64,000 bases of DNA, taken from NCBI GenBank assembly GCA_044892505.1, contig CM097882.1, positions 487,692,001-487,756,000 on the forward strand, written 5' to 3'. The position numbers and the translations under genes were made by a program. Shown one piece after another: positions 31,633 to 33,356 of the stretch; position 1 is the first letter of the stretch; each line of letters opens with the position of its first letter. Source of the stretch: Schmidtea nova. Lineage: Eukaryota. The notes beneath the pieces are model-generated. The model saw only the letters and a list, made by a program, of their open reading frames with translations, had not been told where the DNA came from and did not search any database.

Positions 31633-32205
31633 ATGTACAATAGCAATCAACCCGACAGACAATCAAATAGACAATTCAGTCAGCACCCAAACAAACAATT
31701 CAAACAACACAACCAACCCAATCGTCAACACCCATACAAACAAAGTCAATCCCACAATCAATCGTTCGAAAAGTACGACCAAATGTTCAAACAAAACGAG
31801 AAACGCGCATCTTATCAAAAATACACCTGTTTTATAAACAAACTGGGAAACAGTTTTTATAAAAATATCCAGAACAAAATCAGTACAGACGGACAACCCA
31901 TCACCATAAGAAATTTCCCTAACCAAATCTGCATACCCAACGAAATGAAGACAGACATCGAAGAGAGAGAAATGAGCATAATCAAATTTAATGATGCTCG
32001 AAGAGTCAAACTCCGAGAACTCATTGGGAGTTTCGACCAATATAAAAATGTGGATAAAGCGGTGACAGAAGGTAAAAAAGTACCCCACCAGTTAACGTTC
32101 CACATCACAAAAACCGAGGTATCGATTTGCCAAAACAAAATCCCACTTATGACAACAAGCAATTGCTCGCTCGTAATCAAATTAATTAGAAAAGACAGGG
32201 CATGA
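31633..32205 (+). CDS. Element A accessory ORF (190 aa), Q/N/H-rich N-terminus, unknown function
   Basis: ATG at 31633 follows a splice-acceptor-like TTATTTAATTTGTAG. SNQPDRQSNRQFSQHPNKQFKQHNQPNRQHP. Open frame; its stop overlaps the next ATG (ATGA). Confidence 0.7.
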   Translation: MYNSNQPDRQSNRQFSQHPNKQFKQHNQPNRQHPYKQSQSHNQSFEKYDQMFKQNEKRASYQKYTCFINKLGNSFYKNIQNKISTDGQPITIRNFPNQICIPNEMKTDIEEREMSIIKFNDARRVKLRELIGSFDQYKNVDKAVTEGKKVPHQLTFHITKTEVSICQNKIPLMTTSNCSLVIKLIRKDRA

Positions 32206-33356
32206 GTAACGATTTTAACGAGTTACTGATACAAATGAATAGCTTACCCTGCGTTATTGCGATAGAAATAATTTATATTCCCACAATGCCAAATCCGTTC
32301 AGACAACTAGAGAGCATTCCATCATCTATCAAATTAACAGAAGATCTAATAAAAAGAAGAATCTCATTCACCCAACAAGAACTGTCTATGGAAGAAAGGC
32401 ATGCATTAATAATGTTTCTGAATATCAAATTAATAACGGACATCAACGGAAACCAAAGGCCAGTAAAAATCAGCATAAGAGACGATCAGGGCAGTACAAT
32501 ATATGATAAAAAGATAACCCCAAGATCAAGGATCAGAGATTTCAAAGTTGAAAGAACCAGAGCAACTAAAGAAAACATTATAGGAAACGAGGATGAATAT
32601 CAGGCATTAAATGATGTCAGAAGCATATTATATGGGAAAATAATAATAGGGTTCGGAATAATGGATAAACTCAAAACACTGGCAATGGAAATCAATTATG
32701 TTATGGGAATCCGAGAGATGGAAGAAGATCAGTTCATGTGCACATTCGTGAAGAATGTAGAACCGCACAAAATTAAACTATCCAACTTGGCATACCAAGT
32801 TGTAAGTCATCATAAACGATGGTTCAAGGACAAGAGGGTAAACGAATTATTAAGAAGACCAGAACCATTTTCAGGGTCAGAAACCACCAAATTGGTCAAA
32901 ATAATATACATGATAACAGAAACCCAGTGGGAAGAGGAAATTAAATGGAACCAAAGAAGATTCCAAGAAGAGATGGATCCAAGAAATAGAGCAAACATAG
33001 AAAATAAAGGACAATCCAATAACGATAACAACTGGGAAAGTGAATCAGAAGGAGAGAAGGAAGAAATTCTACAAACATCTACGGAAGAATCAACAGCTAG
33101 TGACGATGACCTTATTTTCATCAGCGAAACAAAAACAACCAACATGGAAATGAGGGAAACAAAAAGAGAACCATTCGTACGACAGGAAAGAATGGAGGAA
33201 TGTGATCTGGATCCAGAAGAGGAATATTTTTCACTTGAAGAAGAAGTAGAAATGGACCAGGTACTGAGTACAAGTTATCAAGAAATTGATATAGGGTCAG
33301 AACCCGAGATCGAAATATTGCCGGAAGAACTCACAACCACAGAAAAGGATACCTGC
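32202..33356 (+). CDS. Element A accessory ORF: REX4/ISG20-like DEDDh exonuclease fold with lost catalytic residues plus acidic tail; interrupted by element B, resumes 37962-38003
   Basis: RPVKISIRDDQGSTIYDKKITPRSRIRDFK...DVRSILYGKIIIGFGIMDKLKTL aligns with REX4 LARVSIVN..G.VVYD.YVKP...VTDYRT..SGI...V.ELLKGRILVGH.L.NDL. ExoI position reads FLNIK instead of ALDCE. Confidence 0.7.

Follow-up and report, generated by a model that had tools for sequence, protein, structure and literature searches.

The 64,000-nucleotide stretch of Schmidtea nova DNA analysed here (the window) contains a GAG-ENV-POL Ty3/Gypsy element, element A, which carries an accessory gene between pol and its 3′ LTR (Table 1). 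Its paired LTRs are 99.0% alike (1,034 matches, 10 mismatches and 2 gaps) and are flanked by a 4-bp target duplication (ATAG). The order protease, RT, RNase H, then integrase is present, as is an env gene between gag and pol, although gag, env and pol are each in pieces in this copy. Element A measures about 13.3 kb without element B, which is nested within it. Its env pieces matched PF24664 in Pfam (E = 1.4e-16 and 1.3e-29) and showed 35–37% identity to the env part of the polyprotein of a related metagenomic locus, L002. Element A pol showed 38–40% identity to the polyproteins of L002 and a second locus, L005; the value for element B pol was 34–35%. The hydrophobic segment that follows pol also closes the polyproteins of relatives. 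Element B has LTRs that are 99.5% alike and a 5-bp duplication (CCTGC); its pol is open for 1,024 aa within 33512–37738, and its gag has a stop at about 34268–34270, ahead of its two CCHC knuckles. Because only 20 bases of element A lie between this insertion and the 3′ LTR, little of the accessory gene would have extended beyond element B, unless a deletion occurred here. The location between pol and the 3′ LTR agrees with an earlier note on this DNA, made from the letters alone, which had proposed a retroelement accessory gene.

Table 1. Features of element A and of the element nested in it, in window coordinates
Feature	Position	Strand	Basis
5′ LTR of element A, then primer-binding-site-like TGG stretch	21154..22244	+	LTR–LTR alignment
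Broken gag region of element A, split into several open pieces, with a CCHC knuckle in 23132–24616	22403..25060	+	
env, Monjiviricetes (chuvirus-type) fusion glycoprotein, three pieces, ahead of pol	25253..27282	+	PF24664
pol, protease/RT/RNase H/integrase, interrupted by stops	27249..31028	+	domain matches
Thr-rich stretch with one hydrophobic segment, in the pol frame after a stop	31029..31511	+	
Accessory gene, front: start rich in Q/N/H and, after it, the greater part of the DSBH (cupin/AlkB-like) domain, motif I-P-N-x-x-K	31633..32205	+	
Frame break within the DSBH domain, apparently peculiar to this copy	32187..32204	+	relatives and contigs
End of the DSBH domain and linker bearing the family S-F motif	32202..32405	+	
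ISG20/REX4-type DEDDh fold without catalytic set	32406..32951	+	
Acidic tail, probably disordered	32952..33356	+	
Element B, nested Ty3/Gypsy gag-pol, LTRs at 33357–33578 and 37734–37956	33357..37956	+	
20 bases of element A separating element B from the 3′ LTR	37957..37976	+	
3′ LTR of element A	37977..39020	+	LTR–LTR alignment

Elsewhere in the window, the minus strand carries an older LTR element (17078–20761) with gag, protease, RT, DUF7047, RNase H-like and integrase parts and end repeats that are 86% alike. A second Monjiviricetes-type fusion gene fragment lies at 40485–41084 (E = 4.8e-19). At 43660–46649 lies a CCHC-rich gag-like ORF and then a 665-aa ORF that has no Pfam match and carries 111-nt tandem repeats. 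DNA transposons are represented by a hAT dimerisation fragment (5503–6360, minus strand) and a CENP-B/Tc5-type transposase fragment (15438–16538). An 85-nt repeat (76%) at 48953–49037 and 62882–62966 contains CCAAT- and TATA-like words and looks promoter-like.

The reading frame that starts at the ATG at 32202 is open to 33356, and element B starts at 33357. To this extent the frame is intact up to element B, as the earlier note had it, but the gene is broken upstream, at about 32187–32204, within its N-terminal domain. The upstream ORF (31633–32205) matched the relative P0003 (E = 1.6e-11) and the family HMM (E = 9.5e-9). P0091, a full-length member with D-I-K, matched both window ORFs in order (5e-12 and 4e-21), and P0002 continues across the window's ORF junction. 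Since both ORFs match one relative in order and another spans the junction, the gene is broken there, and, on these matches, 32202–33356 is only the back part of a two-domain gene. A stand-alone 385-aa gene is ruled out by the upstream ORF, which matches the N-terminal domain of relatives. A word-based protein search found one relative among 297 candidates for the window ORF and none among 73 for longer forms of the front ORF, the latter being weak evidence. In two of the three organism A runs, an indel at the break site separates the contigs of other copies from the window copy. The well-supported private differences of the window copy, among the 40 of 537 that were listed, comprise 12 residue-changing and 2 silent ones in the accessory gene and 13 and 6, respectively, in integrase, as expected of a decaying lineage, and we consider this genomic copy very probably non-functional. 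The acidic tail that had been noticed before is borne out by residues 251–385, where D and E number 42 and K and R 13 among 135 residues; the tail of a relative, P0006, was modelled at pLDDT <50.

By predicted structure and by sequence, the window ORF is closest to ISG20 and ISG20L2. These two proteins were the sole matches at E ≤ 10 when we compared the ORF with the PDB by phmmer (ISG20, E = 0.0015; ISG20L2, E = 0.0021); a Pfam scan of the ORF gave no RNase_T match. The predicted structure of the window frame (pLDDT 89.9) had ISG20L2 (5.6e-9) and ISG20 (2.0e-8) as its best Foldseek matches. Comparison by VIA gave Z 18.2 to ISG20 (rmsd 2.5 over 160 residues), 18.0 to ISG20L2 and 14.5 to SDN1, and the family profile matched ISG20L2 (4e-31), SDN1 (3e-19) and ISG20 (6e-19) in the PDB. 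These searches support the REX4/ISG20-type pattern first suggested for this frame; the RNase H-like DEDDh fold, whose absence would have spoken against that suggestion, is present in the model. The domain is larger than the roughly 150 aa first given and spans about 180 aa (residues 69–247).

None of the five residues of the DEDDh set (ExoI D-x-E, ExoII D and ExoIII H-x4-D) is found in the window ORF. The positions read N74 (32421), K76 (32427), K156 (32667), F223 (32868) and T228 (32883), in keeping with the loss of catalysis that had been proposed. In the closest proteins, P0001 (56% identity) and P0002 (51%), the same positions read D, K, K, F and T, with D-V-K as ExoI. We also found that the codon at 32421 encodes Asp in the other copies, at all depth, in three of three organism A runs (7, 10 and 5 contigs). 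Because Asp stands here both in other copies and in the closest relatives, the window Asn is private decay. In the N-I-K of the earlier note, the Lys, which replaces the ExoI Glu, is common to P0001 and P0002, and the Asn is confined to this copy. The other four losses are old and common to the window, P0001 and P0002.

The N-terminal domain was modelled in P0006, an intact active relative (pLDDT 85.4), in which residues 1–132 form a double-stranded beta-helix (DSBH); the front ORF of the window is tied to this fold by sequence. Residues 1–132 matched ALKBH6 (Z 11.8, rmsd 2.9, 132 aligned), Ofd2 (11.1) and cupins (about 10), and cupin-type entries were returned by both Atlas and Foldseek. Among 41 members we found no Pfam family for this domain, and Atlas gave no usable feature match. 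Conserved columns in the family are Y, P-N, K, R, H (36 of 41), S/T and E/D (39 of 41). With only one conserved His and one acidic (Glu) column, the usual AlkB/cupin metal site is not evident from column conservation alone. Among the solved proteins and Pfam architectures searched, a fusion of a DSBH domain to an ISG20-type domain had no counterpart.

A phmmer search of 1.84 billion representatives returned 71 matches, nine of which are host-type REX4-like proteins. Most of the others have the N-terminal domain before the nuclease domain, and an I-P-N-x-L-K-type motif occurs in 33 of the 71. We then scored catalytic residues in 74 rows chosen by their likeness to the window, two row pairs being the same or nearly the same protein: 38 have the full DE[D/E]HD set, 3 are partial and compatible with it, 21 are complete and dead, and 12 are partial and dead or unclear. 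The ExoIII position holds His in all 38 complete active rows. Of the dead-labelled rows, 29 have a residue at the ExoI Glu position, which is Lys, Arg or His in 17 of them, and the window's subgroup has Lys both at this position and at the ExoII Asp. Outside this subgroup, the catalytic-site substitutions of dead rows vary widely, and the first Asp is present in 7 of 29. Other residues of the dead rows are nearly constant and may be structural: P-R in 31 of 31, G-x-R in 30 of 30 and a loop Asp in 97% of 33, compared with 71% for the loop Asp in active rows. At 51–56% identity, P0001 and P0002 still share with the window the open frame and the four common losses.

We built a tree under LG+G4 from 73 rows, after taking out the five catalytic columns and omitting 8 rows that were short or duplicates, and rooted it on host-type domains, which are uncurated search matches and not curated REXO4 orthologues. 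In this rooted tree, the element family formed one clade (100/99, versus 7 host-type domains) with active rows basal. In a separate tree it was split from 25 host-type domains at 100/100, and 26 dead rows stood together at 84/97. Because active rows are basal and dead rows lie within the element family, dead forms derive from active ones, once or a few times; bootstrap trees had two to four changes, and a single origin was not rejected (p-AU 0.37). The family stood apart from the host REX4-like domains, with which an orthologue would group, and a host REX4 pseudogene was rejected as an explanation of the gene. Searches of viral contigs with the window ORF, P0012, P0013 and alignment A3 found no relative, nor did searches of prokaryote genomes. 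An RNA-virus origin of the 14–17 kb contigs (those of P0006, P0012 and P0013) was also rejected, on the evidence of the two long loci seen, which are retroelements. The P0013 cluster has 24 members, most on contigs of 15.6–17.0 kb that are probably whole elements, and P0017, a dead member encoded on a 16-kb contig, has a RING finger at its C terminus. P0001, P0002 and P0029 resemble gene models that fuse an element gene to host exons, P0001 ending in biotin carboxylase pieces. P0005, P0010, P0020 and P0060 are host-type and have three or four tandem REX4-like domains, several seemingly without catalytic residues.

A metagenome scan recovered eight loci of relatives, L002–L008 among them, all with one accession prefix and so from one metagenome. 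L002 encodes an open 3,207-aa polyprotein that contains a fusion glycoprotein, multiple protease-like domains, RT, RNase H and integrase and closes with a hydrophobic segment; an active DSBH–DEDDh gene follows it. L005 encodes a similar polyprotein with ankyrin repeats and then two paralogues, the first dead (S, R, Q, K and E at the catalytic positions) and the second active. A dead-type gene directly precedes an active one in five of the eight loci (L003, L004, L005, L006 and L007), the pair being partly cut off in all but L005; in L004 and L007, where the sequence covers no more of the first gene than its tail, the dead state of that gene is presumed. A six-frame search of the window found no second or active paralogue in element A. 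The very long open polyproteins (L002:1-9621 and L005:1-6660) place env before pol and contain extra aspartic-protease-like domains; past the integrase, that of L005 has its ankyrin repeats, an Fn3-like part and a hydrophobic end, a Burro-like cargo. Two 43-nt repeats with a GC-rich core (L005:8368-8410 and 8446-8488), possibly an internal promoter or RNA element, lie between the dead and active genes of L005. A small conserved ORF that starts with a basic, NLS-like stretch and ends in an acidic one follows the nuclease gene at L004:1910-2227, L006:3113-3433 and L008:2688-2969; none was seen in element A. A ubiquitin-like ORF (L006:4038-4625; PF00240, E = 6.6e-7) lies 3′ of the nuclease pair of L006.

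The dead paralogues of related elements are under purifying selection. Over 118 codons of the exonuclease-like part, those of L003 and L006 had a dN/dS of 0.13; all values given here come from one metagenome, and those for dead genes from a dead branch other than the window's. Changes affected 25 of 79 silent sites versus 14 of 275 replacement sites (Fisher p = 2e-9). The dead genes of L005 and L006 gave 0.125, with dS saturated, and active paralogues gave 0.11–0.18. Neutral evolution, which the earlier note had named as a ground for giving up its proposal, was thus looked for in related elements, and at a dN/dS of 0.13 their dead paralogues are not neutral.

The best reading of the locus is a broken copy of a gene for a DSBH domain, an ISG20/REX4-type DEDDh domain and a charged tail, which enveloped GAG-ENV-POL Ty3/Gypsy elements carry at their 3′ end. 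Taking fold, residues and selection together, we give slightly better than an even chance to the family being a conserved RNA-binding pseudo-nuclease; a narrower role against piRNA/siRNA silencing, as the earlier note had it, is doubtful and draws no support from the present results. The lineage would have captured a host REX4-like 3′–5′ exonuclease once, and active family members would still cut. One or a few branches would have lost the acidic metal ligands and kept the fold, with Lys, Arg or His often in the pocket, where these residues could replace the lost metal in holding phosphate. The disarmed protein would take hold of the 3′ end or the backbone of an RNA and leave it uncut, and this grip would shield the element's own RNA or hold host small RNAs. 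In a bolder and unlikely version, the two genes would form a silencing-suppressor pair in such elements of invertebrates: the DSBH–DEDDh nuclease would destroy host small RNAs or by-products of the element, its disarmed paralogue would cap RNA 3′ ends or soak up piRNA/siRNA factors, and element A would keep the disarmed half.

A rather unlikely alternative is that the protein is a scaffold or decoy whose dead domain, DSBH pocket and acidic tail would engage proteins or a small ligand instead of RNA. Candidate partners are a silencing factor, a host ISG20/REX4 partner or the active paralogue itself. The tandem arrangement of dead and active paralogues in five of eight loci would suit such a role, as would the polar residues conserved in the pocket-like DSBH domain of the family and the protein-interaction modules on or near relatives (ankyrin repeats, the ubiquitin-like ORF and the RING finger of P0017). 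However, element A has the dead form only, and basic residues in the former metal pocket would suit phosphate better than protein. It is improbable that the domain is not truly dead and that the first Asp, the Glu preceding the ExoIII site or the conserved loop D-E serves in a remodelled site that cleaves RNA with a single metal or without any. The window's subgroup (P0001, P0002, P0003, P0009, P0029 and P0056) and other copies of the window's family do retain the first Asp, and the loop Asp is commoner in dead than in active rows. By contrast, P0001 and P0002 have substitutions at four of five ligands, including two Lys; the first Asp is missing from most dead rows; and window D155, beside the ExoII site, is replaced by Asn in one and by Ser in the other of the two closest relatives. 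That the gene is a captured host REX4 fragment decaying neutrally within the element is the likely state of this copy, in view of its interrupted frame, the element nested in it, its fragmented gag, env and pol, private differences of 12:2 and the lack of an RNase_T match, but for the family it is highly improbable and largely refuted by the open frames of 21 complete dead rows, dN/dS values of 0.13–0.18 among dead paralogues, substitutions held in common at 51–56% identity and a clade distinct from the REX4-like domains of hosts.

The means by which enveloped retroelements stay active in the face of piRNA control are an open question in the field, and few accessory genes of animal LTR elements offer testable biochemistry. 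The proteins of this family are small, well-folding products of single ORFs and come in natural active and dead versions, sometimes adjacent within an element, and would thereby bring their own controls to tests of nuclease activity, RNA binding and silencing. DEDD accessory genes of mobile elements are already known from the available parts of two reports (PMC5408684 and PMC9587614), and those of PMC12440569 and PMC10123124 hold nothing further on them. In the literature searched, mostly outside subscription papers and outside Repbase, we found no DSBH–DEDDh family of ISG20/REX4 type in enveloped Ty3/Gypsy elements; within that scope, the family with its selected dead paralogues is new and represents a gene that had been overlooked in a recently described class of elements.

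That class comprises the GAG-ENV-POL errantiviruses, described with an HSV/gB-type env from Platyhelminthes, Nematoda and Bryozoa in the available text of PMC13524379. Element A shares their gag-env-pol order, class III-type fusion protein and LTRs, and PF24664 probably corresponds to their HSV/gB-type env. The main text of that report mentions no exonuclease, DEDD, RNase T, cupin or AlkB, and seven of its supplement files no exonuclease, DEDD, Rex4 or RNase_T. Burro elements, giant planarian Gypsy elements, likewise have env in frame between gag and pol, and their ankyrin and ubiquitin-like modules recall L005 and L006 (PMC6431247, available part). They differ in exceeding 30 kb and carrying BIR, BCL2 and MATH modules, none of which occurs among the scanned ORFs of the much shorter element A; the same part of that report names no exonuclease for Burro. 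Burro is under PIWI control, according to the portion available of PMC8532177, which provides a motive, not evidence, for an anti-silencing role. In the accessible sections of PMC5408684, the bdelloid LTR retrotransposons Juno and Vesta and the Terminons are described with a DEDDy ORF3 that is RNase D-like, has intact residues and is of untested function. There, too, LTR elements encode a DEDD exonuclease in an accessory ORF of its own, whereas the element A family is of DEDDh type, possesses a DSBH domain and counts conserved dead proteins among its members. KolobokD also has a DEDDh accessory protein, but it is a DNA transposon with a nuclease that is Exuperantia/TREX/ERI1-like and not ISG20/REX4-like (PMC9587614, as far as available).

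Arenavirus NP and coronavirus nsp14, which the earlier note had brought in for comparison, are only distant analogues of the window protein: arenavirus NP was at Atlas rank 23 (score 0.88), and nsp14 had Z 10.1 versus 20.8 for ISG20. Both degrade RNA through an intact DEDDh site, whereas the window protein cannot cut by the normal route; with the catalytic site absent and the likeness limited to a distant fold, we rejected close kinship with either. Among hosts, Exuperantia is a DEDD pseudo-nuclease that has kept its fold, lost catalysis and binds nucleic acid. The available text of PMC13659232 describes PML PXL as a dead DEDD domain that binds nucleic acid, and PMC5408684 cites Maelstrom and EXD1 as further such domains. 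The element A gene resembles all four in having the fold without catalysis and, on the reading favoured here, in binding nucleic acid; these are host genes from other DEDD subfamilies, whereas the element A gene serves a selfish element. ISG20-, ISG20L2- and REX4-type exonucleases (1wlj and 7yw5) and SDN1 (5z9x) have the fold in common with the window ORF and are the best sequence matches of the family. In contrast to ISG20, ISG20L2 and REX4, the window gene is borne by a retroelement, places the domain behind a DSBH domain, has no catalytic set and belongs to a family that forms its own clade.
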